Positions 2,482-61,667 of a DNA stretch of 64,000 nt are shown here, piece by piece. The DNA comes from a virus (taxonomy: Duplodnaviria; Caudoviricetes). A program made the translations under genes and the position numbers. The DNA is taken from the IMG/VR virus record IMGVR_UViG_3300030202_001345, positions 858-64,857 of that record; one strand, 5' to 3'. A model generated the notes under the pieces. That model did not search any database. It was not told the origin of the DNA and saw only the letters and a program-made list of their open reading frames with translations. The stretch's first letter is position 1. Every line of letters begins with the position of its first letter.

Positions 2482-2734
2482 ACAAAAAAGTACCATGGGT
2501 ACATATCAAAGAAGCAGTGAAGAAGATGAAGCTTTGTACTGGTGTATAGCTAACAACGTTTGTATATCTCCTAGACAAATTAAATGGGGTGAAGGCAAAT
2601 GGGTTTTAGATATTGAAACAGGTATATACCCTAACAGAAAATTATTAGGAACAAGTGAAGCTTTTGGTCCTGTAGAAATATGGCAAAAGCAATGTGAATA
2701 CGCTAAATATTATTATGACAAATACAAAAATTAA
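2456..2734 (+). CDS. Hypothetical protein
   Basis: ORF tightly packed in the replication operon; real start may be an internal ATG. Confidence 0.55.
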   Translation: MTAAFRGNKQKSTMGTYQRSSEEDEALYWCIANNVCISPRQIKWGEGKWVLDIETGIYPNRKLLGTSEAFGPVEIWQKQCEYAKYYYDKYKN

Positions 2735-3365: not shown

Positions 3366-3367
3366 CT

Positions 3368-4144: not shown

Positions 4145-4445
4145 AACTGAAGACAAGATAGTACAAGCTGTACTAAGGAAGATGGACGAACGTAGCTTAA
4201 TAGGTCAAAAGAAATATGGAGCTACAATGATGCAAGAGATTGAAGGTCAGGAAAAAGATCTTAATCGTTTTTTAATCGACGTACAAGAAGAACTAATGGA
4301 TGCGTTGTTATATATCGAAGCTGCTAAAAGATGTTTGACTGATGAGATAGAAGAAGCTATGTTAAATAGAATGAATATAATAGGTCAAAACGGTAATGAT
4401 GGTTTACATTACGATATACAAGTAAACGATGAAGAAGTTTTATAA
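4134..4445 (+). CDS. Small all-alpha NTP-PPase-like protein (nucleotide-modification associated)
   Basis: RSLIGQKKYG...VQEELMDALLY with an EExxD motif. Confidence 0.5.
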   Translation: MKIRTEDKIVQAVLRKMDERSLIGQKKYGATMMQEIEGQEKDLNRFLIDVQEELMDALLYIEAAKRCLTDEIEEAMLNRMNIIGQNGNDGLHYDIQVNDEEVL

Positions 4446-4884
4446 AAAGAAAAAACGAGGACCTGTACAGTCGAAAAAGATTATATATGATAATATAACT
4501 TTTGCATCAGGTTTAGAACGTTATATGTATATGGCTTTAAAAAAAGCTAAGATCAGAGCTTTGTATGAAGGAGAAACATTTGAGCTTCAAGAAGGTTTTG
4601 ATTTTCCATTTGAATCATTTGAGCGTTGTGGAAATGGTAAAGGTGATTATAAAAATAGAGGTAATAAAAAAATACTCAATATAAAATACACACCTGATTT
4701 TGTTGGTAAAGGTTTTATAATAGAAACTAAAGGCCGAGCAAATGAATCATTTCCACTTAGATGGAAAATGTTTAAAAAGCTATTAACAGAAAATAAAATA
4801 GCACCGTTAACTTTGTATAAACCACAAAATCAAAAAGAATGCGACGAAACAATAAGGTTAATCCTAAACTCGAGAAAGAGTTAG
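4429..4884 (+). CDS. Endonuclease I / Holliday junction resolvase (T7 gp3-like)
   Basis: FASGLE..YE..YTPDF..IETKG PD-(D/E)xK motif. Confidence 0.85.
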   Translation: MKKFYKKKKRGPVQSKKIIYDNITFASGLERYMYMALKKAKIRALYEGETFELQEGFDFPFESFERCGNGKGDYKNRGNKKILNIKYTPDFVGKGFIIETKGRANESFPLRWKMFKKLLTENKIAPLTLYKPQNQKECDETIRLILNSRKS

Positions 4885-5012
4885 CAAGACGTAAGTATGC
4901 TGAGCGTCAAATAGATACTTGGTGGAAATGGAGTTTTAATATTAGAGGAAAAGTATTGTATAAAGAATTAGTAGAAGTACAAAACAAATACGGAATAAAA
5001 ACACATGGCTAA
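4839..5012 (+). CDS. Hypothetical 57-aa protein
   Basis: Translated by hand as MRRNNKVNPKLEKELARRKY...; fills the gap and overlaps both neighbours. Confidence 0.5.
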   Translation: MRRNNKVNPKLEKELARRKYAERQIDTWWKWSFNIRGKVLYKELVEVQNKYGIKTHG

Positions 5013-5139
5013 AATAAATCTATTTACCTACAAAAAAGAAAAAAGAAAGAAAAGACCTGGAGTACATGCCAAGTCTAAAAATAGTAATTGTAAACAAAGT
5101 ATAAATTATGTCAAAAAATATAAAGGACAAGGACGTTAA
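5005..5139 (+). CDS. Small basic protein, 44 aa (C-terminal KKYKGQGR)
   Basis: MAKINLFTYKKEKRKKRPGVHAK...KKYKGQGR; resembles the YRGQG-type small phage proteins. Confidence 0.55.
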   Translation: MAKINLFTYKKEKRKKRPGVHAKSKNSNCKQSINYVKKYKGQGR

Positions 5140-5272
5140 AGATAACTGGTCTTTGTCAGTAGGATTTTACCCCGGCATATTGCTGGGCGGTAGAACTTAC
5201 GAAGAAGAAAAACAAGTAACACATGTTTTATATCTACCATTTGTAGATATAGCATTAGAAATATATAATTAG
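5108..5272 (+). CDS. Hypothetical 54-aa protein
   Basis: MSKNIKDKD...LYLPFVDIALEIYN; ends immediately before nrdB. Confidence 0.55.
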   Translation: MSKNIKDKDVKDNWSLSVGFYPGILLGGRTYEEEKQVTHVLYLPFVDIALEIYN

Positions 5273-5273
5273 T

Positions 5274-6272
5274 ATGGCTGCACCTATATTTACCCCAAGA
5301 ATACCTTATAAACCTTTTGAGTACCCTGAGTATTATACTGAGGGTTGGTTAAAGCAAGCTCAAGCATTTTGGCTGCACACTGAAATACCTATGTCTGGCG
5401 ACGTTAAAGACTGGAACGAAAAATTAACTGATGCAGAGAAAAACCTAGTAGGAAATATCCTGCTAGGCTTTGCTCAGACTGAATGCGCTGTGTCAGATTA
5501 TTGGACGCAGAAAGTAGTTGGTTGGTTTCCTAAGCATGAGATACAACAAATGGCTATGATGTTTGGATCTCAAGAAACAATACACGCGGTAGCTTATAGT
5601 TATTTAAATGAAACACTAGGGCTTGAAGATTTTTCAGCGTTCCTACATGAGCCAGCTACAGCGGCTAGATTTGATAACCTTGTAGCATATGAAGGCAATG
5701 ATCCAGTAGGCATAGGTAAATCACTAGCTACGTTTTCTGCTTTTGCAGAAGGAGTTAGTTTGTATTCTGCTTTTGCTGTACTATATAGTTTTCAACTACG
5801 TAATTTATTAAAAGGTATTGGCCAACAAATGAAATGGTCAGTAAGAGATGAAAGTCTACACAGTAAAATGGGCTGCCAACTGTTTAGACAAATGTGTTCA
5901 CAAATACCAGGGTTAAAAGAAGAATGTGAACCTCATATATTTGAAGCAGCCTTAACAATGCACAATGCTGAGATGACTTACATTAGTAAGATATTTGAGA
6001 TGGGTGATATAGAAGGAATTAAAAAATATGACTTGGTACAATTTATTAAAAAGAGGGTTGGAGATAAGCTTTCGGAACTTGGGTATAAAACTAAAAAATA
6101 CAAAAGCCACGACTGGACACCGGATAAAAGTTATGACCAAAAAGGAGTGGATGCTCTTTCTTGGTTTGATCATCTTACCGGGGGTCATACCCATACTGAT
6201 TTCTTTGCAATACGTTCGACTGATTACTCAAAGCCTAATGAAGGCGAGGACTTCGAAGACATGTGGGATTAA
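5274..6272 (+). CDS. nrdB: Ribonucleotide reductase class I beta subunit
   Basis: Di-metal ligands QTECAV, ETIH, EGVSLY, DESLH; radical Tyr in HAVAY; C-terminal TDFFAIRSTDY. Confidence 0.95.
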   Translation: MAAPIFTPRIPYKPFEYPEYYTEGWLKQAQAFWLHTEIPMSGDVKDWNEKLTDAEKNLVGNILLGFAQTECAVSDYWTQKVVGWFPKHEIQQMAMMFGSQETIHAVAYSYLNETLGLEDFSAFLHEPATAARFDNLVAYEGNDPVGIGKSLATFSAFAEGVSLYSAFAVLYSFQLRNLLKGIGQQMKWSVRDESLHSKMGCQLFRQMCSQIPGLKEECEPHIFEAALTMHNAEMTYISKIFEMGDIEGIKKYDLVQFIKKRVGDKLSELGYKTKKYKSHDWTPDKSYDQKGVDALSWFDHLTGGHTHTDFFAIRSTDYSKPNEGEDFEDMWD

Positions 6273-6310
6273 AGTAAATATAACTGAAGACGATATAAAT
6301 AAAGATTTAT

Positions 6311-6541
6311 ATGAAAGAGAATAAATTATTAGAAATGAAAAACAAGGTAGAAGCTTTAACAAATATTGCTCAACACCTTTTAACAGAAACAGCTCACATA
6401 AAAGAACTAGCAGTTGGTACTTTAGAGCTAATAAAAAATATGCCCGCCTATGACGAAGCAGTTAAAAAGCTTAAAGAACAAGTTACTAAGGATCCTAGTG
6501 AGAACAAGGAGACTGACGCCGATAGAGAAATTATCAAGTAG
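6311..6541 (+). CDS. Hypothetical coiled-coil protein
   Basis: 76-aa ORF in the operon. Confidence 0.55.
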   Translation: MKENKLLEMKNKVEALTNIAQHLLTETAHIKELAVGTLELIKNMPAYDEAVKKLKEQVTKDPSENKETDADREIIK

Positions 6542-6722
6542 AATAGGTTACTTTGGAGCTGGATGTTTACTTGCAGCTCACTGGACACTAGAACCTAAAT
6601 TATATATAGCAGGATTTGTTTGTGTATTAATTCAGGTAGCATCTCGTAAACAATGGAACTTAGTAGTACTAAACATTAATGGGTTAATAGCCTGGACAAA
6701 ACATTTAATTAGCAACTTATGA
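6450..6722 (+). CDS. Small multi-TM membrane protein
   Basis: Three hydrophobic stretches in the C-terminal ~60 aa; stop overlaps the nrdA start. Confidence 0.5.
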   Translation: MTKQLKSLKNKLLRILVRTRRLTPIEKLSSRIGYFGAGCLLAAHWTLEPKLYIAGFVCVLIQVASRKQWNLVVLNINGLIAWTKHLISNL

Positions 6723-8419
6723 ATTGGAATAACAATTGGATAAAAGATGTAGATTACCCTGCGTGGGGAGATACTGATGTATATAAAAAAACTATTACTG
6801 GAGGTTATTTATTAGAAGATGAAACTCCAGCTGACGCTTATAAACGTGTTTGTAAAACTGTAGCAAGAAGATTAAATCGTCCAGAGCTTTGTGATATATT
6901 TTATGAATACATTTGGAACGGTTGGTTGTGCTTAGCGTCTCCAGTTTTATCTAATACAGGTACTGATAGAGGTTTACCTATTAGTTGCTTTGGTATTGAC
7001 GTTGCTGATAGCATTCATGACATTGGTACTAAAAATTTAGAGATGATGCTACTCGCTAAACACGGCGGTGGAGTTGGTATCGGTATAAATCAAATAAGAC
7101 CCGCCGGAGCTAAAATAACAGGAAATGGAACAAGTGATGGCGTTGTGCCGTTTTGTAAAATATACGATTCAACAATACTTGCCACTAATCAAGGATCTGT
7201 CAGACGAGGAGCTGCATCAGTTAATATTAACATTGATCACCCCGATTTCGAAGAGTGGCTCGAGATACGTGAACCCAAAGGAGACATTAATAGACAATCA
7301 CTTAACCTGCACCAATGCGCTGTTGTCGGTGATAAGTTTATGCGAAAACTTGAACAAGGAGATGGACAAGCTAGAAAACGTTGGGGAAAATTACTTCAAA
7401 AGCGTAAAGCGACTGGAGAACCTTACATCTTATTTAAAGGGAATACAAATAAGAATAACCCCAGCGCATACAAAGATAACGGATTAAAAGTACATATGAC
7501 TAACATATGTTCTGAAATAGTTTTACACACAGATGAGTCACATAGTTTTGTATGTTGTTTGTCTTCTTTAAACTTAGCTAAATACGATGAGTGGAAAAAT
7601 ACAAATATTATTTATGACAGCATATGGTTCCTTGATGGAGTGCTTGAAGAGTTTATACAAAAAGCTAAAGGCAAAATTGGTTTTGCCAACTCAGTACGTT
7701 CCGCAGAAAAGGGTCGCGCCCTCGGGCTTGGTGTTCTTGGTTGGCATACCTATCTCCAGGAAAAAAGCATTGCTTTTGAAGGTTTACCAGCTCAGTTTGA
7801 AACTAGGAAAATATTTTCGCAAATTAAAATTGAAAGTGAAAGAGCTAGTATGGACCTTGCAGAGATATATGGAGAACCTTTATGGTGTGCTGGAACTGGT
7901 TTTCGTAATACCCACTTACGTGCTATTGCTCCTACTGTTAGCAACAGCAAACTTAGTGGAAACATCTCACCAGGCATTGAACCGTGGGCTGCAAATGTTT
8001 TCACGGAGCAATCTGCTAAAGGTACTTTCATACGTAAAAATCCTACACTTGAAAAATTATTGGAAGAAAAAGGATTAAATACAAGGTATGTATGGGATAA
8101 AATATTATCTGACGGAGGTTCAGTGCAAGATATAAAAGAGTTAGACGAAGAAACAAAAGAAGTTTTTAAAACGTTTAAAGAAATAAATCAACTAGAGTTA
8201 GTAAGACAAGCTGGTTTGCGACAACAATATATAGATCAATCTGTTAGTTTGAATCTAGCTTTTCCTAGTCAGTCATCACCTAAGTGGTTAAACAAAGTTC
8301 ATTTTGATGCTTGGAAGAAAGGTGTTAAAACTTTATACTATATGAGAACAGAGTCTGTACTACGTGGTGATATAGCTGATAAAGCAACTAGTGAAGATTG
8401 TGTTGCTTGTGACGGATAG
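6719..8419 (+). CDS. nrdA: Ribonucleotide reductase class I alpha subunit (no ATP cone)
   Basis: SPVLSN, ISCF, GGGVG, TNICSEI, CCLSSLN, APTVSNS, KTLYY; C-terminal CVACDG. Confidence 0.95.
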   Translation: MNWNNNWIKDVDYPAWGDTDVYKKTITGGYLLEDETPADAYKRVCKTVARRLNRPELCDIFYEYIWNGWLCLASPVLSNTGTDRGLPISCFGIDVADSIHDIGTKNLEMMLLAKHGGGVGIGINQIRPAGAKITGNGTSDGVVPFCKIYDSTILATNQGSVRRGAASVNINIDHPDFEEWLEIREPKGDINRQSLNLHQCAVVGDKFMRKLEQGDGQARKRWGKLLQKRKATGEPYILFKGNTNKNNPSAYKDNGLKVHMTNICSEIVLHTDESHSFVCCLSSLNLAKYDEWKNTNIIYDSIWFLDGVLEEFIQKAKGKIGFANSVRSAEKGRALGLGVLGWHTYLQEKSIAFEGLPAQFETRKIFSQIKIESERASMDLAEIYGEPLWCAGTGFRNTHLRAIAPTVSNSKLSGNISPGIEPWAANVFTEQSAKGTFIRKNPTLEKLLEEKGLNTRYVWDKILSDGGSVQDIKELDEETKEVFKTFKEINQLELVRQAGLRQQYIDQSVSLNLAFPSQSSPKWLNKVHFDAWKKGVKTLYYMRTESVLRGDIADKATSEDCVACDG

Positions 8420-8431
8420 ATAGTAATTATT

Positions 8432-8466
8432 AAAAAAGAAAAGGAGGCCTTGAGCCTCCTTTCTTA
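8432..8466. terminator. Bidirectional intrinsic terminator between the convergent arms
   Basis: aagaaaaggaggc-cttga-gcctccttttctt inverted repeat flanked by A/T tracts. Confidence 0.85.
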
Positions 8467-8496
8467 TATAGGAACTTTTGGGTATGGTACGCCCAT
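8464..8496 (-). CDS. Putative 10-aa microprotein MGVPYPKVPI
   Basis: ATG preceded by A-rich leader caacaataaa; last ORF before the terminator. Confidence 0.3.
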   Translation of the reverse strand: MGVPYPKVPI

Positions 8497-8525
8497 TTTA
8501 TTGTTGTTCCTTTTGTTTCCTCTGC

Positions 8526-8564
8526 TTAACAAAGACCGCAGTAGCCATTACATATTGGACACAT
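8526..8564 (-). CDS. Putative 12-aa Cys-rich microprotein MCPICNGYCGLC
   Basis: CxxC-x3-CxxC; A-rich leader aataaaataaat before the ATG. Confidence 0.45.
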   Translation of the reverse strand: MCPICNGYCGLC

Positions 8565-8648
8565 ATTTATTTTATTTATAGTTTTTAAACATTGATTTGT
8601 ATAGCAATTTGTTCCAAGCTTGCTTAAACTTGAAAATAAATTTTCTCA

Positions 8649-8810
8649 TTATTTCTTTTTTTCATTTTTTAATTGTATCCATTTAGTTACAGTATAACCT
8701 ATAGTTACAATAAGTAGTAATACTTTCAGTCCCATTTCTATATCTGTGAGTGTGGTTACGCCTAGTGTTGATCCGTTTATTAAGTAAAGTTTTAAGTTTT
8801 GTATATCCAT
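8649..8810 (-). CDS. Small membrane protein (holin-like), 53 aa
   Basis: MDIQNLKLYLING...GLKVLLLIVTIGYTVTKW..KKK; hydrophobic helix plus basic tail. Confidence 0.55.
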   Translation of the reverse strand: MDIQNLKLYLINGSTLGVTTLTDIEMGLKVLLLIVTIGYTVTKWIQLKNEKKK

Positions 8811-8821
8811 TGCCTGTTAAT

Positions 8822-11800
8822 TTATTCCCATTCGTCTATATTTAGAACTGATTCTTTTTTCTTTTTCTTTTTATTCCCTGTTGTATCTCTATCCATACCA
8901 AGTTCCCAGTCTTGATAACCCATAAGCATAGAGATTCTTTGCCACATTTCTACATCATCAAATAATGCTCCATCTATATTCTGAGCTTTTCTTAAGGCTC
9001 TGTCCATAGGCACGTTTGTGGTTGCAGATATTATATTTGCCAATGCCATATAAGCCTCGTTGTCTAAACTAAACTCCATGTCATTAAACGCTCCATACTC
9101 TGCGGATATAGCAGCGCTTCTTAATTTTCTTGCTTTTGAACCTATTGTAGGTGATACGTTTAACACTTCAAATATCGCCGCGTCATAAGCTTTCTTCCCG
9201 TCTTTTTCCTGTATTTGTTTTATTTTCATTAACGTGTTTTTAACCATAGATGCTGTAGCACCGTATAATCCCATACCTCTCAATAACGAGTCAGCCATAC
9301 CATTAGCAACTCTACCAGACTTAGCCATTAGCTTATCGTCTGTTTCATCATCGCCAAACGCAATACCAAACATAGCATTTTGTATAGCGTTAAACATAAG
9401 GTTTTGTATAAATCCATAGTAAACTATTTTAGAAGCGTTTGTTTTCCAATTACCTCTGCCGTTTACTAAATCTAAATAAGCTTTCTTTTGTATTCTCATG
9501 TACTGCATAGGTGTGTTAGCAAAAGCTAATATAACCCTACCTAGATCACTAGCTTGCTGTTGGCTTATTTTATCAGTTCTACTTGACTGTTGAGAGTTTT
9601 CAGCTATCTCTCTAAAATCTCTAAAAGCTCTTTCTTCTGCTACTTTTTCAGACAAACCTTTTTTCTTATAAGTGTTTAATCTGTTTCTATAAAACGTAGC
9701 ACCACCAGAAGCTATAGCAAAACTATCTGCATACCTAGTAAAAACAAAACCTTTATTTAACATATAGTTTATTAATCCTCTACCTCCACCGGACTCTGCT
9801 ATTTCTGATTCAGATATGTTTAACTTTAAACCATTACGTCTAGAGATTAAATAATCTGAGTTCATTAACTTTAAAAAGTCTTTAGAATATTGAGGCATGT
9901 TACCTAAAGCTTTACCAGCAGCCATAGGATTATTATCTGTCCAGTTAACAAAGTTAATAGATGATATTGTCTGCAACACAGCGGATCTAGTATTTAAGAA
10001 CATGATAGCACCTACTGAATTATTAATATAGTCAAGTACTTTGTTTTCTAAATTGTTTCTTGATTTTCTATTTCTACCAGTCTTCATTCTAGATATAGTA
10101 CCCTCTAAAGCATCTCTATAGCTTTTACCAAAAGCAGCTTGAAGTTTATTTAAATTAGCTTCACTAAATATTTGATTAACATTTTCTGTCCAACCATACT
10201 GCTCTAGATATTCAGATCTTTTTACATCTCTTAATAAATTTCTAGCATCTAAAGTTAAGTTACCACTAAGCCAATCAGCCTTAGGTGGAGACCAACCAGA
10301 GTTTTTAGTAGTTAATAACAATTGATCTGCAAACGCCTCGAGCTTAGGATTATCTTTAACTAATTTATTTAAGTCTCTTAAATCTGCTTTACTTAAACCA
10401 GGAACTTCTAATCCCATCTTAGTCCACATTCTAACTCTTACAGCTGTTTCGTTAGTGAAACCAGTGTCATTAGTCTTTTTAAGATTTTTAGGTACTACAC
10501 CTAAGCTTTTTTTCAAAGCTTTAATATCTTGCGCTAGCTTAACCTGATCTTTAGAAATCATTTCTTCTGCTTTAGCAAAAGGATCATTTAAATATTTCTT
10601 ATAAAACTCTTGTTGTTTTTCTCCAACCTTACCTTTACCTAATGTTTTATAAAGTAATCCCATAAAGTCTTCAGCACCAGGAGAAACTATGTAATCAAAC
10701 CTACCTTTTCCTCTGCCTACAACTTCAGCTTTTGCTCTACCAAATACTTTATCAGCACCGATGCCTGATTTATTTTGTATTATCTCGTTAAACGTTTTGT
10801 TTAGATCAACTTGTTGTAAAGCTAGTTGGACTTTGCTTTTTACGTCTATAACATCTAAAACAGATTTAACAGCTTTAACATTTTTTACAGCATCATCTAC
10901 AAAATAAAAATCATTATAACCTTTAGCAGCCTTATCTAATATCCAGTTTGACTTTGCTGTTGGGCTACCGTTTTCTAAACCAGTAATATTTTTAAGAGGT
11001 ATGTCAATACCTATTCCTTTTAAAAACTTATGAATAGCATTAGCTGACGCTTGAGGTCTTGCTGTTAACACAAACATGTTTTCATTACCAAATTTTCCTA
11101 TAGCTTTTTTAATTCTTGGAACTAGAGGACCGGGCTTCCCGTCAATTACTTTATTAAATTCAGAAAAATCGAATTTTGCTCCTTGAGCTTCTAAGGCTTC
11201 TGAACGCTTAGCAAATTCTGTAGCATTAAGTTTACCTTTCTTGCCATTAGGCAACGTGTAAAGTACGTTAGATTTAGATCTAGCTAATGTGTCATCAAAA
11301 TCGTATACACTTATACCCTTAGTTTCTTTTTTTAATCTTCTAGCTAAAGCTAAAGCCTTATCTCTATTAGACATGTTGTTTAGTAATTCAGATTTACTAA
11401 GATCAATTTGTGATAATGTGCCTGACTTTTTAGCTAAAGCTTTATCAGCTTCATATGACTGTTTAGTTTGTTTAGGATTTGCTAATTCATATTTAGCTAT
11501 TTCTACATTAGGCTTACTAGGTTCTAATGACAACCTACCCATAGCATCTTGCAGCTGTGGTACTTCTAATTTTCTAACTGATTGACCTAGCTTTTGTGCA
11601 TTTTGTTGCATTAGCTTGTCATAAAGAGTTTCTTTAAAACCACTTTCAACTGTTACGTAATCTTTTAATTGTTTTAAATCTAAAATCATACGAGATAAAC
11701 CAGCGGTATTAGTTGTGCCACCAAGCTTATCTATAACATCTAAATATTTTTTAAACGATATAACACCTTGATAATCGTTCATTATTTTTCTACCGTCTTT

Positions 11801-14800
11801 AGCCCACTTACCCTCTACAATAGCCTTAGCTTCTTGCATTGATTGTTCTAAAGAAGATTTTAAATGTTCAAGTTTCATTGTGCCTACACTACCTGTTTTT
11901 TTAACAGCCATAATAGGAACTAATTGTCTACCATAACCTTGTATAGTGCTGGAATTAGCCGCTGCTAAATCATATATAGTTCTTGCCCTTGCTTCAAACT
12001 CTGCTGGTGTTTTTGCATCATATAGATACTTTTGTTTAATGACGCCCATAGCATAATACACATCTGCCTTGTAAGCATTATCGCTTGCATTTATATATTT
12101 TTTAAGTGCGCTTAAGTCATTAGTATCAAAATACTTTTTTAAAGCATTTTTTTGTTGAGACTCAGTCATGAAATCTCCTGGTTTTATATTATCAAATACT
12201 TCACCTAAATATTTTTCACCAAGATTATCAATTATTCTTTTGTATTGGTTTTTACTAACAGGGCTTTCTGACATTAAATTACCATCTGTAGTTATTTTAG
12301 CACCATCAGGACCAACATTTCTACCAGTGCCTCTACTGCTACTACCAAACGATTGCAATAAAGTTTCTTTAGTTTTCAAAAAGTCTGGTAAATTTTTAGG
12401 ATAATATTTTGCTAAGTCTTCTATGTTTTTAAAGAAACCTTCTATTCTAGCTGTGTCAAATAAAGAAATATCACCTTGAGTGCTACGCATTGATTTGCCA
12501 GTTACTCCGTCTATAATGTTTTCTATCTTAACACCCTTTGGCGCACCACTAGCTTCAGCTATTTTCATATCAGCTTTAGGAGCTTTTTTAAATGTAGGTG
12601 CTTCTGTTTTACCACGAGCAGCCTCTGACTCAGACATTTTAATAGACTCAGTCTCTATGAACTTAGCAACATCTGGATATAATTTTCTAAATCCTTCTGG
12701 ATCTCTTGAGTAATTAGCAAAGGCTGTAAATACTTTTTCTATACTACTTAAAGTTTTTGGCTTGTTAGGCGCGTTTAAAATAACTTGAGCCATGCGTGGA
12801 TTTTTACCATCAGCCAAGTCTCTAATAACAGAATTAGATTCAGGTCCTGTACCTTGAGCTTCTCTAGCTACTTTGTTTTTTAATCCTCTAAAAACTAATT
12901 CAGTTAAACCTTTTATAGTTTGTACTTGTGCATCTCTATATAAAGCACCAGCTGGTTCTTTTAATATATCTTGTATATCTTTTATACTAAGATCTTTTCT
13001 TAATTCCCAGTTGCCACTATTGTTTTTTCTATATAATAATTTTTTAAGATTGTTTGGTACACCTGTTGCCTTGCCACCAGCTGTAAATCCTTCTGGTATT
13101 ATATTTAAAACAGCTTGCGCGTTTTTATTTAGATCCGATCTTAATTGTCTAAAACCTTCTATTGCAACTTTAGGTAAATTACGTTTTGGACTTGTAAACC
13201 ACTCAGCTAGTGGATTACCTTTTGAATCTACAATACCATATGTTTCAGCAAGTAACTTAGCTTCAGCTTCAGTTAAACGCAAAGACTTATAGGTTTCCTT
13301 AGACATGTCTCTATTACTTATATCCTTTTGCATTTCAGGTATAAGATCTTTTTGAACATCTATAGTTAAATCTAATTCTCTAGGATCTGTTTTCTTAACT
13401 CTAGGTTTTGGTTTAGGCGCGTCTAAGTTTTCAGCTTTAAAACCTCCAGTATCTGCAATACCCCTAATATTACTAATGTCTTCGTTAATACGCTTAGTCA
13501 TGTCTAACCCAGCTTCCTCGTATATTTCTTTTCTACGAGATTTAATTGTATTACCAAGGTATGTCATTACCTCTGTGCTACCGTCGTAGTTATCCAGCAT
13601 ACCAGTCTTTCTACCTTTTGCTACTCCTAAAAGTTGATATACTAAAACATCTGTTATAGCGCTTTGTTGTACGTCACCTAGCTTAGTACTAAAACCTAAA
13701 GCTTGATTTATTAAAGCTTGATTATCTTTAATTAAATCATAAATATCTTTACCGTAATCACCAGATTTGTTTTTAATATTTTCTGCTAATTCTCTATTAC
13801 GTTGTTGTTGAGTTTTTAAAAGCTCTTGACCAGCTTTATCTAAGTTTAATTTTTGTCCGGTTTGAGTGTTAATAAGATCGTATACTTTACCGCCTTTTTG
13901 TTTTTGTATTTTAATATCTTTAAAACGCTGTATCATACCAGGACTGTATTCACCAGATCCTACGCTTTGTCCATATCTACTTAAAAAATTTATTACTTTT
14001 TGTGGTGTGTTTAGATCTGGCAATAAGCCTTTCATTGGTGTGTCTCCAAGTGTTTTTTCTAAAGAACCATAAATATCTTGTACTATTTTTCCAAATACAT
14101 TATTAGTAACAATGCTTTCGTAGTTTTTAGGATCTCTTAATAAATCTACAACAGCAGCCGTATACTCTTCATTAAAACTATTTTTATCCTGTATTTTTTC
14201 GTATGCTTTTTCAACAGCACTTTTTAAACCTCCTTTTATATTTTTAATACCAAATTGCCAGTCTACACCGTTAAGTGTTTTAGATATGTTTCTTGCTAAA
14301 CTACCAGACAAGCCAACATCGTTTTTAAATTGTTGTCTCATCATTGTGTGAAATATCTCATGAGGCACTGTACCTGGAGTCATCTTGTTTACATTAACTC
14401 TAACCAAAGGTGGTTTGCTTCCTCTAAAAACAACTTCTGTTTTACCAGATTTATTTAATTTAAAATCAAAAGCAGGTTGATCTGACTTTGTAGCTTTTTT
14501 ATATTGTCTATTATACTTTTCAAACAAAGACTGAGTATCTGCCATTAAAATATCTTTGTTTAAATATCTCTCTCTGTTTTCTGATACCTTTATTTGTTTA
14601 CTTACTTCTTGATATAACTGTACCTTGTTTATGTATTGGCTATCATTTTTTTCAAGGTCACTTCTTTTGCCTTTACTTTCCATCTTCATAATGTCAATAA
14701 GTAATTCCATTTGAAGATTCTTTTTACCCTGCATTGTTAAAGCAAAATCTGCCTTACGAGACTTACCAGTTGCCATGTGGCTGAAACCAATTAAACTAAA

Positions 14801-17431
14801 TTGTATTGTTTCCATTAAAGCATGCTTAGCCCAGTCAGACATGTTACCATATTTTTCTTCGACAAATGTTTGCATGTCAGTTTGGCCTAACATAGATTGA
14901 ACCATTGCTTCTAAAGGCGCAGCAGTTTGAGCACCGGCAGCACCACCAAGTCCAGAGTAAAAACCTTTTTCTATAAAAGGATTAAAAACAGCGTACTCTC
15001 CTTTAAATATATTTGTTGGCAATACTTTTCTCATAGCAGCACCACCCAATACAAATCCAAAACCAGCACCAACCGGCATGTCAACACCAAACAAAGGATC
15101 CAACGCTGCCATTTTAGCTTCTTCTTGTAAACCTAATATACCTAAAGCTTGCAGCTTTTGAAAAGCACTACCACTTACCTGTGTTAAACCTTTTGATTTA
15201 GAATAAGCATCAACAGTCATTTTAGCTCTTCTCGCCCTAGCCGCAACAACTGCTTGTGATAAAGGTGTTACGCTATTTTTACCTGTTTTAGCTAAATACG
15301 TAACGTTTTTTAATTTACTTAAATATCTTCCTGTTCCTAAAAAATTTCCAGTACCACCTGTTAAATAAGTAACAGCAGCAAGTTCAGCAATCATAGGGAC
15401 AAAACCTCCCATACCGCGTACTAGTTCTTCTCCAAAACCTACTTCAAAAGCTTCTTCTTGTTCTGTGGTAAGCTCTATTGGTTTTTCACCTTCTTCTAAC
15501 GTAGAATTAATATTACTAATTAAGTCTTGAGTTCGGTTTAATACGTCTCTGGTAGTTTCTATTTCAATAGCCTCACCTCCGAAAGTAGGTAAAGCCTCAC
15601 CAAGACCTTCTACAAAATTCATTATCATGTTTCCGTTTAGCGCTAAATCATTTGCGCTTAGAGAACCTGGATCTACATTTAATAAATATAATTCTTTCCA
15701 GGCTTCACGTTGTACTTCTAATCTTTTTTGTGTTTCTTTAAAGTTAGCAACAGTTGCGTTTAAACCTCTAGCGTCTGGAGCACCTTCAATTCCTGATATT
15801 TCTTTTAAATCTTTTATTTCTTTATCAGCGCTATAGCCACCATAAAATTGATTGTAACCTTTTAATGAACCTAACCAGGGGTCAATACCTCTTGACAGCT
15901 TCATCATGTCTTTCATCTTAACACCTCTAACAACATAAAAATCTCCTCCAGTACCACTAGCTTCTAGGTTTGGTTTATAACCATACTGTTTTAATTTTTC
16001 TAATTGCTTTGAGAAACTTACTCTTATATCAAATTTAATATCGTTTATATCTTTTTTAAACTCTCCGTACTCCATGTTAAACACATTGTACTTGGATTTA
16101 ACAGTAGCAAAATCATTGTTCTTCATTATTTCTTGAAGATTTACTTTTGCTATATTATACTTATCGGTTAAGTCTTCTTCATCTCTTACTATTATACCAC
16201 CCTCTTCACCAACCGGTACTATTCTTCTTCTACCTGTTTCTAGATCAAATAAAAATTTAGTATTTTTACCAAATATTTCTTTCATCAATAGATCTCTTCT
16301 TGCTTCTAGTTTTTTGATTTCATTAACAGTGCCTCCATACTCTCCGTAACCTAAGTTTTGAAAGTTTTCATTAAGAGTTATTTCCTTGTTTATAAGTGAG
16401 GCATTTATACTTGCTAGTTCTTTTTCTTTAGGATTTACAATTTCTTGTATTTGTTGAATTTTTAAATTTTGTAAAGCTAGTGAGCTGTTTTCGTTCTCTA
16501 GTAATGGTAAGTATTGTTGCTCATAAACTCTATCAAAATTATCTTTTACTTCGTTTAATTGAATATCTTCTATTATGCTATTTACTTTTTTAGTTATTTG
16601 ATATTCAGGTAAATAACCACCATTATCTTTATATAATTGTGAAACGTTTTTTCTAACATATTTTTGAAAGTCAGCAGATTTAGATCCTTTCATTATACTA
16701 TTTATAGGCATATAAGAATCAACACTAAGATCTTCTTCATCTAAAAAATCTATTTTCAATTGAGGTATGTTAGTTAAAACTTCTTCTTCAAAAACTTCCA
16801 CGTTTTGATTAAATTGTTTTTGAGCCTCTGAATCAAAATTTAATTTTAAAAATTCGTTTATTTGCCCTTCACCAGTGTGAGTAGGTTTGTCTATTAAACC
16901 TACCGCTTGACCTAACCTTAATGCTAAACCGGTAGCATTAATACCACCACCTGGGGGTGATGGCCCTTCATAATACTCTGGGTTTAAAGCTACTTCTATT
17001 TTGTTTCCATTTAAAGCTTCTATACCAATTCTACTAGAACCTCTTTTTGTAAAGCTAAATCCTCCATTTTCTCCACCATACAATGTATTATACGCATTGA
17101 CTAAGTCCTGCGTATCTTGTGATTTAAAATCTGGAATTTCAATTATATCAGTATATTTTCTATCTTCAGGTATAACAACCTCTGTTTTACTAGGTGTTAC
17201 AACTTCCCACTCATCAATATTTAATTCCGATGAAGAGTTTTCCGAATCTGATTCCATATTCTCGGATGCTACCGGGGTTATTGGTGTTACAGTCGCATCC
17301 TCTGCCACAACACCTTCTGCTTTTTTTGAGTAACCTAGGTTAGCTGCTTCAGTTTCCCAATCGTCACCAAACATATCTTTTAAAGATTGTACAGTTACCT
17401 CGTTACCATCTCCATCTATGTATATTTCCAT
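8822..17431 (-). CDS. Giant multidomain virion/ejection (polyvalent) protein, 2869 aa
   Basis: Last in the ejection-protein block; zincin HEIFH..EE (~14350); sigma-region-2-like segment (~13500-13760); HAD phosphatase motifs DFDDT/LTAR/K/FVDD (~10830-11320); hydrophobic helical C-terminus. Confidence 0.75.
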   Translation of the reverse strand: MEIYIDGDGNEVTVQSLKDMFGDDWETEAANLGYSKKAEGVVAEDATVTPITPVASENMESDSENSSSELNIDEWEVVTPSKTEVVIPEDRKYTDIIEIPDFKSQDTQDLVNAYNTLYGGENGGFSFTKRGSSRIGIEALNGNKIEVALNPEYYEGPSPPGGGINATGLALRLGQAVGLIDKPTHTGEGQINEFLKLNFDSEAQKQFNQNVEVFEEEVLTNIPQLKIDFLDEEDLSVDSYMPINSIMKGSKSADFQKYVRKNVSQLYKDNGGYLPEYQITKKVNSIIEDIQLNEVKDNFDRVYEQQYLPLLENENSSLALQNLKIQQIQEIVNPKEKELASINASLINKEITLNENFQNLGYGEYGGTVNEIKKLEARRDLLMKEIFGKNTKFLFDLETGRRRIVPVGEEGGIIVRDEEDLTDKYNIAKVNLQEIMKNNDFATVKSKYNVFNMEYGEFKKDINDIKFDIRVSFSKQLEKLKQYGYKPNLEASGTGGDFYVVRGVKMKDMMKLSRGIDPWLGSLKGYNQFYGGYSADKEIKDLKEISGIEGAPDARGLNATVANFKETQKRLEVQREAWKELYLLNVDPGSLSANDLALNGNMIMNFVEGLGEALPTFGGEAIEIETTRDVLNRTQDLISNINSTLEEGEKPIELTTEQEEAFEVGFGEELVRGMGGFVPMIAELAAVTYLTGGTGNFLGTGRYLSKLKNVTYLAKTGKNSVTPLSQAVVAARARRAKMTVDAYSKSKGLTQVSGSAFQKLQALGILGLQEEAKMAALDPLFGVDMPVGAGFGFVLGGAAMRKVLPTNIFKGEYAVFNPFIEKGFYSGLGGAAGAQTAAPLEAMVQSMLGQTDMQTFVEEKYGNMSDWAKHALMETIQFSLIGFSHMATGKSRKADFALTMQGKKNLQMELLIDIMKMESKGKRSDLEKNDSQYINKVQLYQEVSKQIKVSENRERYLNKDILMADTQSLFEKYNRQYKKATKSDQPAFDFKLNKSGKTEVVFRGSKPPLVRVNVNKMTPGTVPHEIFHTMMRQQFKNDVGLSGSLARNISKTLNGVDWQFGIKNIKGGLKSAVEKAYEKIQDKNSFNEEYTAAVVDLLRDPKNYESIVTNNVFGKIVQDIYGSLEKTLGDTPMKGLLPDLNTPQKVINFLSRYGQSVGSGEYSPGMIQRFKDIKIQKQKGGKVYDLINTQTGQKLNLDKAGQELLKTQQQRNRELAENIKNKSGDYGKDIYDLIKDNQALINQALGFSTKLGDVQQSAITDVLVYQLLGVAKGRKTGMLDNYDGSTEVMTYLGNTIKSRRKEIYEEAGLDMTKRINEDISNIRGIADTGGFKAENLDAPKPKPRVKKTDPRELDLTIDVQKDLIPEMQKDISNRDMSKETYKSLRLTEAEAKLLAETYGIVDSKGNPLAEWFTSPKRNLPKVAIEGFRQLRSDLNKNAQAVLNIIPEGFTAGGKATGVPNNLKKLLYRKNNSGNWELRKDLSIKDIQDILKEPAGALYRDAQVQTIKGLTELVFRGLKNKVAREAQGTGPESNSVIRDLADGKNPRMAQVILNAPNKPKTLSSIEKVFTAFANYSRDPEGFRKLYPDVAKFIETESIKMSESEAARGKTEAPTFKKAPKADMKIAEASGAPKGVKIENIIDGVTGKSMRSTQGDISLFDTARIEGFFKNIEDLAKYYPKNLPDFLKTKETLLQSFGSSSRGTGRNVGPDGAKITTDGNLMSESPVSKNQYKRIIDNLGEKYLGEVFDNIKPGDFMTESQQKNALKKYFDTNDLSALKKYINASDNAYKADVYYAMGVIKQKYLYDAKTPAEFEARARTIYDLAAANSSTIQGYGRQLVPIMAVKKTGSVGTMKLEHLKSSLEQSMQEAKAIVEGKWAKDGRKIMNDYQGVISFKKYLDVIDKLGGTTNTAGLSRMILDLKQLKDYVTVESGFKETLYDKLMQQNAQKLGQSVRKLEVPQLQDAMGRLSLEPSKPNVEIAKYELANPKQTKQSYEADKALAKKSGTLSQIDLSKSELLNNMSNRDKALALARRLKKETKGISVYDFDDTLARSKSNVLYTLPNGKKGKLNATEFAKRSEALEAQGAKFDFSEFNKVIDGKPGPLVPRIKKAIGKFGNENMFVLTARPQASANAIHKFLKGIGIDIPLKNITGLENGSPTAKSNWILDKAAKGYNDFYFVDDAVKNVKAVKSVLDVIDVKSKVQLALQQVDLNKTFNEIIQNKSGIGADKVFGRAKAEVVGRGKGRFDYIVSPGAEDFMGLLYKTLGKGKVGEKQQEFYKKYLNDPFAKAEEMISKDQVKLAQDIKALKKSLGVVPKNLKKTNDTGFTNETAVRVRMWTKMGLEVPGLSKADLRDLNKLVKDNPKLEAFADQLLLTTKNSGWSPPKADWLSGNLTLDARNLLRDVKRSEYLEQYGWTENVNQIFSEANLNKLQAAFGKSYRDALEGTISRMKTGRNRKSRNNLENKVLDYINNSVGAIMFLNTRSAVLQTISSINFVNWTDNNPMAAGKALGNMPQYSKDFLKLMNSDYLISRRNGLKLNISESEIAESGGGRGLINYMLNKGFVFTRYADSFAIASGGATFYRNRLNTYKKKGLSEKVAEERAFRDFREIAENSQQSSRTDKISQQQASDLGRVILAFANTPMQYMRIQKKAYLDLVNGRGNWKTNASKIVYYGFIQNLMFNAIQNAMFGIAFGDDETDDKLMAKSGRVANGMADSLLRGMGLYGATASMVKNTLMKIKQIQEKDGKKAYDAAIFEVLNVSPTIGSKARKLRSAAISAEYGAFNDMEFSLDNEAYMALANIISATTNVPMDRALRKAQNIDGALFDDVEMWQRISMLMGYQDWELGMDRDTTGNKKKKKKESVLNIDEWE

Positions 17432-20470: not shown

Positions 20471-22042
20471 TTAATAAGCAGACTCTACATAGTTTGAAGA
20501 GACTGCGAATAATTCTTTTACGCCTCCAACATCTGTAGATGAATCTGTTTGAACTGTTACAGTACAGTAGTAACCTTTTATACCAGTCATGTCTGCACCA
20601 AAAACAATTTCACCCTCAGACGGTTGTGTATCGTTGACTAAGTTAGCATAGTATTTATTTTCTTTTCTATCAAACCCCGCGTACTCTCTTGGTAATGCTG
20701 GGTTAACTGTTCCAAAAACACTAAGATAATCTAAGCGATCTACAGCTTGTCCGTCCGCTGGATTTATTACGTATTCACCTTCGTAAAAACTACTAACTGC
20801 TGGAACGTAAACCGGTGGATTACCAACACCATCAAAGTATTTAACGTAAATATTATTAAACTCATCTGGTCCAGTAGCATCGCTTTGAAAAGCATAAACT
20901 TCCCAACCATTACTTCCTTCGTAATTAACTGTTTTAAAGTTTTTAGATAAACTAACTTTAGGGTTAAATATAAATGTTATTAGCGAGTCATACTGTCTGC
21001 CATAAAAATTAGCTCTTTGACCTTGGTTGTGTTGCCATAAAGTAGGCGCAGCATCTTTATAGTTACCACCACTTTGCTGTTCTTGCTCATAACCAATAGA
21101 ATAAAAATTACCTTTTAAACTAAACATTTCAATAGGTCTATAACTAAACCTACTAGTCCAACCTAAAACAGTTTCGTCAAAAGCTAATGTTTGATATCTA
21201 GGTGGATCATTAAGTAGGCCAGGAGTAGGGTTGCTATATTCTTGTAATGATATTACATACTGCTTTTGATACATATCCCAGCCGCCGAAAACTTTTCCTA
21301 GTTTAGCGTTGCTAAAGTTAACACTACCTAGATTATCTCTAAAATAATCAAACATACCATAGTTAGATATCTCTGTTATACCATCTCTTGATAATCTTAG
21401 CACGGCGTTTCTATCCATATCCGCAAAGTACTTTCTATAACCATAGACAGCAAAGCTTTCTGGATTTCTACTAATACCATAATTACCAGCATAAGGAACT
21501 ATTTGACCTATAACTAAATTAAGTTGACTAACAGGAACGCCACCACCCTCTGCAGTATATATAGCATCTTTATCTATTAAAGCTCTACTAACTTTATTTT
21601 CTTGAAATATAATTAAGTTAGTATCTTCTGCATATAGTTTTTGTATACTACCATTTGCTGGATCAGCTGCTTTGGTAATTTCTTCTCCAACACTAAATAC
21701 GTTTGTATCGTTAATACCTGTTCTGGAATTATATATACCAGAATAAATCATAGCATTACCCCTAATAGCCCCAAGAGGTTCGTTTTCAACTAAATAAGCT
21801 TTTACACCTAGAGAAACAGATGTGTTATTATAACCGCCTCTAATTCTAGATTCTTCAATAGCCCAATCATAACCGTCTGAACCTATAGTACTAATTCTAG
21901 GGTATCCACCTAAAACCTGTGGTATACCTCTTGAACCGTCCCATACAGGCTCTGTTGGCTGTGTTGGTTGACTATTTTCATAATCATTAACTTTCTTTAA
22001 TAAGAAGGTATTAAAATATTTTACTTCTATTATCGCAGGCAT
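20471..22042 (-). CDS. Tail stabilisation/nozzle protein, C-terminal-type part
   Basis: GSIQKL..YAGNYGISRNPESFAVYG..YFAD..RNAVLRLSRDGITEIS beta-propeller-like motifs seen in crAss-like stabilisation proteins. Confidence 0.7.
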   Translation of the reverse strand: MPAIIEVKYFNTFLLKKVNDYENSQPTQPTEPVWDGSRGIPQVLGGYPRISTIGSDGYDWAIEESRIRGGYNNTSVSLGVKAYLVENEPLGAIRGNAMIYSGIYNSRTGINDTNVFSVGEEITKAADPANGSIQKLYAEDTNLIIFQENKVSRALIDKDAIYTAEGGGVPVSQLNLVIGQIVPYAGNYGISRNPESFAVYGYRKYFADMDRNAVLRLSRDGITEISNYGMFDYFRDNLGSVNFSNAKLGKVFGGWDMYQKQYVISLQEYSNPTPGLLNDPPRYQTLAFDETVLGWTSRFSYRPIEMFSLKGNFYSIGYEQEQQSGGNYKDAAPTLWQHNQGQRANFYGRQYDSLITFIFNPKVSLSKNFKTVNYEGSNGWEVYAFQSDATGPDEFNNIYVKYFDGVGNPPVYVPAVSSFYEGEYVINPADGQAVDRLDYLSVFGTVNPALPREYAGFDRKENKYYANLVNDTQPSEGEIVFGADMTGIKGYYCTVTVQTDSSTDVGGVKELFAVSSNYVESAY

Positions 22043-22046
22043 ATTA

Positions 22047-22076
22047 TTATAATTACTTGTTTTTCACTGTTTTAAC
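22047..22076 (-). promoter_or_regulatory. Putative class-2 (late) promoter GTTAAA-N14-GTAAT
   Basis: Matches the motif at 47711, 54127 and 63031. Confidence 0.5.
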
Positions 22077-25000
22077 TAGTTTAACGCTGTCAACGGTTGT
22101 TGAGTACCAGCCGTGACAGCACCATTTGCACTCACCTCCATTTTCCAAGATCTTAATTCTTGATTAGCAGAATTGCCACTACCAGGTCCATTTGTAAAAC
22201 CTTTGGCCCCAGCAAACTCAAATGGATAGTTATTAGCACCGCTGGTATTCCAATTACCAGCCTCTTCATAGTTAGTACCACCACTTCCAACTGTTCTTAC
22301 ATTTATTGTACCTGATGAACCAAATGTTTTTGGTATTGTTAAATCAGTGTCCGTGTAAAGCTGTGTAATATATCTAAACAATGGTTCTTTAGCATATACA
22401 ACCTGAGTTCCTGCGTTTGGTATTACATTTGGGTTTGTACTAGGGAAACTTACTCTATATTTAAACGCTCTTTGATTTCCAAAGTCGTAATAAAAATCAC
22501 CAAATGTAATTTGAAAACCATTTCCAGCTAAACTAAAACCACTTGATTGATTTACCTGGCTACCACAAAGCTGAGTATTACACGGCCAGTTATTATTATT
22601 CATGTTGTATGTTGCTATTCTATAATCACCTGGCGTGTCGAATGCAAATGTTCTTGACGCGTAACAAGACACAACCTGTGAAGTGCTACTACTTTGTTGA
22701 GGTACTCTTGTTTGCCACCTTCCAAAACCATTTATGTTACTACCGCCACTCGAACTAGTTGCTAAATATAATTGACCAAACTGCCATTCTGAAGTTAGAT
22801 TTGTTGAATGCCTCCACTCACCTTGAGAGTAATTAAGGGTTGAGCTACCTGGGCTTAAGTTACCTGTGTAATCACCATTTAAATCTGTTGCTGCAACCCA
22901 TTGAGTGCCACCTACAGGTTTGTAATCTATATTAAAACTACCAAAACTATACATGAAGCCACTATTACCACCTGGTCCGCCCACTCCCTGATCATCGTTT
23001 CCAAATCCACCATCGTTACTAGATCCACAAAAAGTATTTTGATTGTTTGACACTAAAGTAATATTTATAAAAGCTGTACCATCTACTATACCTGGTTGAT
23101 TTACAAAACCTGTAGCAGAAGATCCACCAGCCATTCTAAAAACACTGTGATTATATGCTGAATTAGTTGTACCACAAGTAACAACATTTTCGTTACAATC
23201 TGCACATTTTTCTAAACTTGTAAAACCTTGAGCGCTACCCGCTGGAGAACCTGGAAAACCAACAGTGGCTGCTGGCGGTATCGCCTGAAAACCTTGGTCT
23301 GCAAGACCCATTTGACTAAAAGCTGTTGCTGAACTCATTGAGTCAGCAAAAAATATTGTAGCAGCTTCACCAACACTAAAATTACCAAATAAATTTCCTG
23401 TAAAAGAACCTGTTAAAGGTGTTTCTCCAAATATAACTTGAAAAGTTGATGTATCTACAACTCCATTAGAATCAGTTAATGTAACTGTTAAATCATAAGC
23501 ACCTATTGCTGTTCCGTCTTGTGTTAATCTACCATATCTTTTTCCTGTGGTTTGATCTTGATAGTTTACTATATCAAACGGACTGTTAGGCGTAGCTTGA
23601 CCACCAACCTGTACGCTAGTAATATTCCAAGTTAAATCATGCTCATACATTAAATCACCCTGTATTTGCTGTGTTTGGTTATTTATGTTTGAGCCATTGT
23701 ATCCTATGAAATCATACATAGGTGGCCGGTTAGGAAGTTGGTTTGTTGGGCCTTGACCTTCTTGAAAAGAATAATTTCGTGTTGTAAAAGGATTTGCTAT
23801 TAAAGAAGAAACATTTGTTAATTGATTATTACTAACTGTAAATGATGAAGGTGTTGCTCCTGGAACAGGTACACCTGTGGCGTCTGCTTCTATAATACTA
23901 AAACTAAACTGATACGTATTAGCTACGTCGTTAGGTGAAAAACCATCTTTGTAAAAATACTGTCCTTTAGTTGCTATATAATAACTATCATAAGAATAAG
24001 GTTGATTACCTGTGCTACCATCTAGCATTATTTGTCCTTCTGAAACTTTAACTAATTGAAAGTAGTTAGTAACATCATTACCTACACCATCAACAACACT
24101 AAAAATATCATTACCAGCAGCGTCAGTCGCTATAGCTGTATAAGTTATTGGTGTGCCACCAGAATCTTCTGGAGCAAAATTACCATTAGCGTTGGCAGAT
24201 GATATACCTACAAACTTAGTTTGTATACCACTGTTAGGATTACCGAAAGCACCACCAACAACTGTTACTAAGTATGCGTTGCCATCATCAACAACACTAG
24301 TTACTGTGGGTGAACCAGTTGTATTTCCTACAGGTACTGTATTTAATATCCTGTCTTCATTTCCTTGCCAAACATTTTTTGGAAATCTTGCAGTTCTATT
24401 TGCAGAACCTTGTACTCTAGAAGCAAATACCCCTAAAGCTTGTAAGCCTGGGTAAAGATTTATAGGTATGGTATTAACGCCTGATGCATCTACAAAAGGA
24501 GCACCAGTAGCTTCACTATAATTTAAGCTTGCGCTTTCTTCTAAAAAGAAGTTATAGTTGTCTAAGCCAGCCGCGATACTTGTGTTGTTTTCTACAACAA
24601 AATTTAAATCACTAATTAAACCTGATGTAGTAGTTTCATAATATATGTCTAATCTAGATATATTAGGTTCTGTCTCATATATAGCTAGTTGAGGCGTCAT
24701 ATTGGTATTTAAACTTGATGACGATATAACACCTATGTTAATAGGATCGTTAACACCCCTTGTTGTGGTAATTCTAGCTATTAAAGGTTTTGTGTCTATT
24801 TGATATAGATTGTCTTGACCAGTAGTACTTAAAGTATCAAACACCATATTTGAATCCGCTGTTGTTGCTATATTACTTACAATATGAGCAAATACACCTG
24901 GGTAAAACTGAGTGTTAGCAGTTGCTGGGGTAACAGCAGTTTGACCTTGTTGAGTGACTGGTAGGTTTGTAACTCTACCAAATAATCTTACGGAACTTCT

Positions 25001-61647: not shown

Positions 61648-61667
61648 ATAGTAATAGGCTAATGTCA
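61625..61667. promoter_or_regulatory. 43-bp operator-like element, copy 2 (inverted), covering the HTH gene start
   Basis: Reverse complement aligns with 54181-54223. Confidence 0.6.

Follow-up and report, generated by a model that had tools for sequence, protein, structure and literature searches.

The window analysed here, 64,000 nucleotides of DNA (bases 858-64857 of the 64,857-bp IMG/VR virus record IMGVR_UViG_3300030202_001345; all positions below are those of the window), comes from a 64.9-kb podovirus-like, marine Flavobacteriia phage. One of its proteins, of 2,869 amino acids, very probably contains a module with the fold of sigma-70 domain 2 (sigma2) or a remote homolog of that domain (regions 1.2-2.4), judging from sequence profiles and predicted models. 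The protein (P0001) is encoded by a giant open reading frame (ORF) on the minus strand (8822-17431), the final gene in the structural block on that strand, and the sigma2-like domain occupies about 110 residues of it (13481-13810, minus strand; amino acids 1208-1317), as delimited by an AlphaFold2 model, fold searches, hhalign alignments and profile matches in the PDB. The best explanation overall, to which we assign a probability of roughly one half, is that a sigma2 module resides in a giant protein of the polyvalent type, which would be packaged in the virion and dock on the RNA polymerase (RNAP) of the host.

The fold was predicted by AlphaFold2 without templates, from an alignment of 27 sequences, none of them a sigma factor. 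The resulting model of the window module (predicted local distance difference test, pLDDT, 81.3; predicted template modeling score, pTM, 0.71) contains seven helices (amino acids 1209-1220, 1226-1236, 1238-1245, 1256-1268, 1288-1298, 1300-1306 and 1311-1323) and a confident 19-residue loop, and its last 18 residues are disordered. In a VIA-align comparison with 48,161 representative chains, the best 11 rows were all sigma factors, as were 19 of the 21 top rows, the remaining two being transcription-initiation complexes (chain identity unchecked). AlgU was the best match (Z 6.7, root-mean-square deviation (rmsd) 3.1 Å, 89 residues aligned), the SigC 'Pribnow box recognition region' was matched at Z 6.5 over 84/89 residues, and CnrH, SigW, sigmaE region 2, sigB, SigK, sigma32, ShbA, SigE and SigI6 also stood among the top rows. 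Foldseek against the PDB placed sigma factors at nine of the first ten ranks, with template modeling (TM) scores of 0.53-0.54 relative to isolated sigma2 domains. A search of BFVD returned a phage FliA-type sigma at rank 1, and all named rows in the first 11 ranks were phage sigma factors, with which the module shares the predicted fold class of domain 2.

An independent AlphaFold2 model of a second sub-family of the module (sub-family B, pLDDT 74.4) gave comparable results in VIA-align: sigB at Z 8.6, sigma28 at Z 8.3 (rmsd 2.9 Å) and the Escherichia coli sigma70 fragment 1sig_A at Z 8.2 (rmsd 2.5 Å, 86 residues aligned). Its best 10 rows were all sigma factors, and the first row from outside a transcription complex appeared at rank 22. 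The predicted bundle and the order of its helices are the same as in domain 2 of the extracytoplasmic function (ECF) and group-3 sigma factors AlgU, SigC, sigB, sigma28 and SigE/SigK. We conclude in favor of sigma2 because four hit lists from two models are near-exclusively sigma, and because sequence evidence agrees with them, not because of any one score. A resemblance to sigma region 2 had been proposed in a first-pass annotation made from the letters of the window alone, and the helical bundle that this proposal called for is the one that structure prediction and fold searches returned.

At the level of sequence, the resemblance could not be sustained from the window alone, for which Pfam gave no Sigma70_r2 match at E ≤ 10 and a five-sequence hhalign comparison scored 10.4; it did emerge at the level of the family. 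As a reference we used 52 bacterial sigma region-2 sequences from ten metagenome-assembled genomes (MAGs) that hold related phage contigs. Alignments of 17-50 homologs scored 27-32 against this reference in hhalign (P 4.4e-5 to 2.1e-4), with probabilities of 69% for sub-family A, the window's type (P 4.4e-5, score 31.7), 51% for sub-family B (P 1.5e-4) and 64% for a merged set of 50 sequences (P 6.6e-5). The register was every time the one that the first-pass annotation had put forward. No control exceeded 15.9, whether the alignments were reversed, their columns were shuffled (30 times) or other windows were used (42 along the giant protein and 24 from deep flanking-module alignments or reversed families). 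When sliding windows were run along the whole giant protein, the top score (20.6) belonged to the region-2 window itself, and no other sigma region was found.

Database searches with family profiles also led to sigma factors. Searched blind against 177,635 distinct PDB sequences with hmmsearch, profile A3 gave a single match at E ≤ 10, to region 2 of S. aureus sigB (8x6g_H, E 0.05). The top match of profile A5 was the N-terminal domain of a sigma factor (8b3z_A, E 0.044), and sigma chains made up four of its 13 matches, with two from FliA and one from pro-sigma-K among them. The 11-sequence alignment A2, used in the first such search, returned no sigma factor, its sole match being a fragment of RNase HI (E 1.2). 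When members were scanned individually against NCBIfam, 12 families were matched at E ≤ 1 and nine of these were sigma factors, five of the nine deriving from a single sub-family B member that aligns with the N-terminal portion of these models. Among 30 language-model neighbors in the ESM Atlas, Sigma70_r2 was the only named family, on 19% of one viral cluster. The equivalent PHROG scan was noisy: two sigma PHROGs, matched by one member each, appeared among 30 weak families, as did a terminase small subunit and a ribonucleotide reductase (RNR) family, likewise with one member each.

The peptide on which the proposal had been based, LIKDNQALINQALGF...MLDNYDGSTEVMTYLGNTIKSRRKEIY, is present on the minus strand as amino acids 1233-1304 of the giant ORF (13520-13735, within the interval 13500-13770 originally given). 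Within the module, the helix equivalent to region 2.2, QSAITDVLVYQLL (13628-13666, minus strand; amino acids 1256-1268), was placed by the hhalign register, secondary structure and the conservation profile. The best-conserved part, MLDNYDGSTEVMTYLGNTIKSRRKEIYEE (13514-13600, minus strand; amino acids 1278-1306), corresponds to the sigma 2.2/2.3 loop and region 2.3-2.4 (FD..g.kFSTY..), an equivalence that HMMER alignments to sigB, sigE and sigK chains also support. Conservation is concentrated in this loop and the region-2.3-like helix, ML..Y.P...(F/V).TYL..I..R..IY, and the best-conserved position of the family, (F/V)(S/M)TY(L/I), is the equivalent of region 2.3/2.4, without the tryptophan pair after it. 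In sigma factors the aromatic wedge residues of region 2.3/2.4 bind the -10 element, and ECF sigmas also differ at the tryptophan pair. Overall, the module follows sigma-70 domain 2 in the register L..n..li...a.gy / ..D....l.G / gi...YdP...kFSTYL....R.

The module belongs to a family with two diverged branches, whose members reside in the giant proteins of related marine phages. Close homologs of the giant protein share 75-99% identity with it, and one further protein, P0006, shares 53%; the P0006 type enters the family upon iteration of the hidden Markov model. An exhaustive search with a 601-residue query (amino acids 950-1550) yielded 44 proteins, many of them 1,400-3,000 amino acids long, around a dozen of which align across the segment. 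In addition, 57 related IMG/VR contigs were gathered by means of the phage's free-standing sigma gene, and 50 of these were searched for the module. Sub-family A (17-31 sequences) was found in 10 of the 50 records and sub-family B (20 sequences) in 15, which together make at least 24 distinct records, and the module always lies in the same place within an open frame of 2,100-3,500 amino acids. The two sub-families are homologous to each other (hhalign probability 94.5%, P 7.6e-8, 95 columns). Their consensus sequences, ...LIenN.iI..ALGf...kGdv....i......GI...YdP...kFSTYL.n...R..iY for A and ...F.iie.fkPi...iv.rr...P.fd...L..eIetG.rGi.dlI.eY.Pe.GvPLaaYIN for B, were compared with sigma, and the family consensus is nearer to sigma than is the sequence of the window.

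Several features of the giant protein surround the sigma2-like domain. Directly after it comes a charged linker predicted with low confidence (13394-13480, minus strand; amino acids 1318-1346; model residues 111-128 have pLDDT <50), followed by a conserved block (13022-13393, minus strand; amino acids ~1347-1470) of the pattern tYK..ia..fGi.p..i..N..fi.kNA..LPe..GkaTGvP..l..fY. This block follows the domain in both sub-families and always travels with it, without a family assignment of its own, and it could be a functional partner of the module. A zincin protease had been noted on the upstream side, and an HExxH motif, HEIFH (14348-14362, minus strand; amino acids 1024-1028), does lie about 200 residues upstream of the noted peptide, where it marks a putative zincin-like metallopeptidase module; Pfam returned no match for the region. 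The motif is kept in 21 of 22 aligned homologs, the remaining row starting just before it, and a conserved EE some 60 residues further on (14165-14170, minus strand; amino acids 1088-1089) is a candidate third metal ligand in light of the description of zincins given in PMC5512222. Toward the C-terminus, a segment resembling HAD phosphatases (10832-11314, minus strand; amino acids ~2040-2200) carries DFDDT (amino acids 2044-2048), FVLTARP and FVDD, which we take to be the HAD motif set; the set is invariant in a five-sequence alignment, and the segment has a weak match to DUF2608 (E 0.007). Taken together, the sigma2-like, HExxH metallopeptidase-like, conserved-block and HAD-like modules suggest that the giant protein is one of the 'polyvalent proteins'.

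According to Iyer et al. (2017; main text of PMC5512222), such proteins are very large, are injected and combine many domains, with zincin-like peptidases as the most frequent hub, and the virion RNAP of phage N4 is a polyvalent fusion with zincin-like peptidases. The giant protein appears to resemble them in being a giant multi-domain protein that is encoded with virion genes and carries a conserved HExxH...E beside effector-like modules. By analogy with other polyvalent proteins, we infer that the giant protein is packaged and ejected; the position of its gene in the structural block and a weak match to a structural protein of Tenacibaculum phage Gundel_1 are consistent with this. In the sequence of events that we propose, the giant protein would enter the cell with the DNA, and the sigma2 module, either still inside the polypeptide or freed by the neighboring peptidase-like module, would dock on the core of the host RNAP. 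The docking site would be the beta-prime clamp helices, as for sigma2, and docking would capture the polymerase at the very start of infection. Its outcome might be a choice of promoter by a minimal sigma like gp55 of phage T4, competition with the host sigmaA, or tethering of the polymerase to the entering DNA. Docking is the most likely role for a module with this predicted fold, and we consider the chances that it does engage the host RNAP to be about even. Co-folding of the module with residues 236-340 of a Flavobacteriia beta-prime subunit, run without controls, gave a score of 0.30 (mark 0.32), to which we attach no weight in either direction.

A number of observations weigh against this reading. 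The curated Sigma70_r2 model (PF04542) gave no match at E ≤ 10 for the window segment, for 11 members of sub-family A or for three of sub-family B, and the same model does detect the phage's own free-standing sigma, which thus serves as a positive control in the same genome. The sequence E-values are all marginal (0.01-0.6), the hhalign probabilities range over 37-69%, and none reaches a curated cut-off. Likewise, the Foldseek E-values are ≥0.1, with none ≤0.001, and the VIA Z values (5-8.6) lie within the range that, according to the tool, common helical arrangements can give. Within the module, neither the DLxQE signature nor the tryptophan pair of region 2.3 is kept. The region-2.2-like helix is the least conserved, retaining only its hydrophobic positions and differing by indels between the sub-families; in real sigmas, region 2.2 is the contact to beta-prime. 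Across the family, amino acids ~1210-1345 form the least conserved stretch between the giant protein and the 53%-identical P0006, and the module was not detected in 26 of the 50 related records. Nor did profile A3 detect it in the 3,859-residue counterpart of the giant protein in MW202828.1, a freshwater podovirus relative. A 47-sequence alignment of the downstream block was compared with ECF and group-1/3 alignments for sigma region 3/4, with probabilities of just 0.2-0.7%; its best sigma alignment covers 13 columns, located at the turn of region 4.2 (P 0.08-0.25).

Some of these observations are what one would expect if the sigma2 fold had been kept without any contact to RNAP, the module serving as a structural spacer or as a binder of single-stranded DNA or duplex DNA ends within an ejected or internal protein. 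A region-2.2-like helix that is poorly conserved and interrupted by indels, a module that varies more than any other part of the protein and escapes detection in roughly half of the relatives, and the lack of sigma partner domains in the search for region 3/4 all fit such a role. Against it stands the fact that two diverged sub-families have both retained a fold near-exclusive to RNAP initiation factors, along with a conserved Y.P....FSTYL core. Furthermore, polyvalent proteins are described in the main text of PMC5512222 as assemblies of effector modules acting on host systems. We regard a purely structural or DNA-binding role as doubtful, albeit the most serious alternative to a module that docks on RNAP.

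The first-pass annotation went further than docking, proposing that the module is an injected sigma, released by self-cleavage, that steers the host core RNAP to seven ACARACA-N15-TGGATAAT promoters and so takes the place of a virion RNAP. The promoter-like sites themselves are real. All seven, ACARACA-N15-TGGATAAT(AATATAAA), are exact and on the plus strand between 54439 and 59598 (starts 54439, 54552, 55359, 56081, 56989, 57901 and 59569), when 0.6 would be expected. They extend to TGGATAATAATATAAA, precede small ORFs and cluster where the plus-strand arm begins. With up to one mismatch, the motif occurs in 28 of 50 related records, clustered on one strand, and a reversed control gave almost no matches; in relatives the upstream block extends to ACAAAC(A/T)AAATAC(G/A)A. 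The host-type pattern TTG-N17-21-TAnnTTTG, the Bacteroidota sigmaA consensus, is not enriched (12 matches vs 10 expected, by a crude pattern).

The same phage encodes a complete, free-standing sigma factor (62266-63021, plus strand; 251 amino acids) with regions 2-4 (PF04542 at 21.3 bits, PF04545 at 17.2 bits), which aligns with group-1/3 sigmas in hhalign over 197 columns (probability 99.4%, P 5.8e-21). It is 61-88% identical across the 57 IMG/VR contigs, a set picked by this very gene, and shows no specific relation to the module of the giant protein (hhalign probability 1.8%). A helix-turn-helix (HTH) gene (61662-62279, plus strand; 205 amino acids), with weak Xre-like, HTH_11 and SpoIIID matches, overlaps the start of the sigma gene by 14 bases. 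The seven sites lie upstream of the sigma gene on the same strand, and that sigma could thus be on hand for their first activation only if it were packaged.

For an injected sigma with its own promoters, then, there is the predicted sigma2 fold, a set of conserved promoters that precede the free-standing sigma gene and differ from the host-type consensus, and the fact that conservation within the module peaks at the counterpart of region 2.3, the part of sigma that reads the -10 element. The late sigma of phage T4, gp55, offers a precedent, as a minimal factor that consists of sigma2 only, reads a single -10-like element and works without sigma4. Chain 7d7d_F of the T4 late complex (subunit unchecked) matches the models at Z 5.0 (window) and 6.5 (sub-family B). 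It is also the case, however, that gp55 is produced as a separate protein in the course of infection rather than within a virion protein, and that it needs gp33 and the sliding clamp. The promoters have a long conserved upstream block at a -35-like spacing, which a sigma2-only module could not read, and the search of the downstream block found neither sigma4 nor another DNA-binding domain next to the module, whose region-2.2-like helix is its least conserved helix. Of the 24 records with the domain, 16 have the motif, as do 12 of the 26 without it; many of the 50 are fragments, and motif and domain show no clear association. Nothing in the sequence data ties the seven sites to the module. A two-domain sigma encoded by all 57 relatives, gathered as they were by that gene, explains a two-block promoter more simply. 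Because the upstream block is beyond a sigma2-only factor and a complete sigma is encoded elsewhere, we consider a self-cleaved early sigma serving these promoters unlikely. A fuller version, in which these Flavobacteriia podoviruses inject a minimal sigma2 that is carried in a giant virion polyprotein, is freed by its own zincin-like peptidase, loads onto the host core RNAP and opens the conserved TGGATAAT(AATATAAA) early promoters before any phage gene is expressed, is improbable too.

Finally, a coincidental likeness between sigma and an unrelated small bundle of helices, which would account for the zero matches to curated models, the uniformly marginal E-values, the tool's warning that Z values below 8-13 are common among helical bundles and the choice of the hypothesis by eye from a large space of resemblances, is very unlikely given that four kinds of blind search, with two sub-family profiles and two models, put sigma factors almost alone on top, in a constant hhalign register and with control scores of ≤16.

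The genomic setting of the giant ORF is that of a podovirus structural block. Terminase (35476-37680) and portal (33055-35475) genes are followed by several PHROG 'virion structural proteins' and then by the giant ORF. Two adjacent minus-strand ORFs of this region, of 523 and 1,676 amino acids (20471-22042 and 22076-27106), match different parts of the 1,474-position PHROG 14478 'virion structural protein' (positions 943-1213 and 1-177, respectively) and look like a split or rearranged large structural protein. Terminase similarity relates the phage to the Flavobacterium 'elemo' podoviruses and to phages of Cellulophaga, Tenacibaculum and Maribacter (87 records). The Tenacibaculum relative Gundel is a podovirus, and neither 'sigma' nor 'RNA polymerase' appears in the main text of its description (PMC8776804). 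In a tblastn search against 50,697 cultured-phage records, the sole match of the giant protein was to the 2,482-residue 'structural protein' gp074 of Gundel_1, in the C-terminal part only (amino acids 2553-2699, 27.7% identity, E 2e-6); one giant-protein family member searched against the same records gave no match. Gene order is shared by the freshwater relative MW202828.1, in which the 3,859-residue gene comes last (741-12320); the label of that gene, 'reticulocyte binding/rhoptry protein', is an evident annotation artefact.

Pfam and PHROG scans of the whole giant protein and of pieces of it gave nothing meaningful, the Iso_dh, Sec10_N and DUF2243 matches being noise; weak phmmer matches of amino acids 950-1550 to isopropylmalate dehydrogenase in the PDB fell outside the segment. 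In a Kyte-Doolittle scan every 19-residue window stayed below 1.5, and we therefore make no claim of a transmembrane segment. Elsewhere in the window, a GroEL-like chaperonin is encoded by the phage (45779-47332, minus strand; phrog_5725, E 1e-131), and MW202828.1 has groEL and a cpn10 gene. Contigs carrying the phage group's ribonucleotide reductase (78-90% identity) have been binned in MAGs labelled Aliivibrio, Thiothrix, Nitrosomonadales, Acidimicrobiaceae, Desulfobacteraceae and Flavobacteriales, and are most likely phage contigs mis-binned into bacterial genomes.

Sigma factors are known as free proteins, from cells or made by phages during infection. The module departs from sigma-70 factors in its setting, at residue ~1200 of a 2,869-residue protein of the structural block rather than in a free protein of 170-600 amino acids. 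It also departs from them in its make-up, with a long loop of 19 residues in place of the 2.2/2.3 turn of sigma, no detected region 3/4, an unconserved region-2.2 signature and scores below every curated threshold. With polyvalent proteins it would share the logic of jump-starting transcription on entry, yet, unlike the N4 virion RNAP, its transcription module would recruit the host enzyme rather than be a polymerase. The word 'sigma' does not occur in the main text of PMC5512222, and the domain catalogue given there thus lacks a sigma domain. More broadly, a full-text literature search, together with the text of PMC7824862 and PMC5512222, turned up no account of proteins, whether of the virion or ejected, that contain a domain like sigma, and within that scope a sigma2 domain inside a polyvalent-type protein among virion genes represents a new domain context.

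A sigma domain within a protein of the virion block would be a new architectural context for the sigma family and a new type of effector for injected polyvalent proteins. The phage may deliver, along with its DNA, a module that targets RNA polymerase. If the module binds the host RNAP, this would explain how transcription starts in a phage whose early promoters are unlike the host consensus. If true, delivery of a sigma would stand as a third option for starting transcription, beside the host holoenzyme and the virion polymerases of the N4/crAss type.

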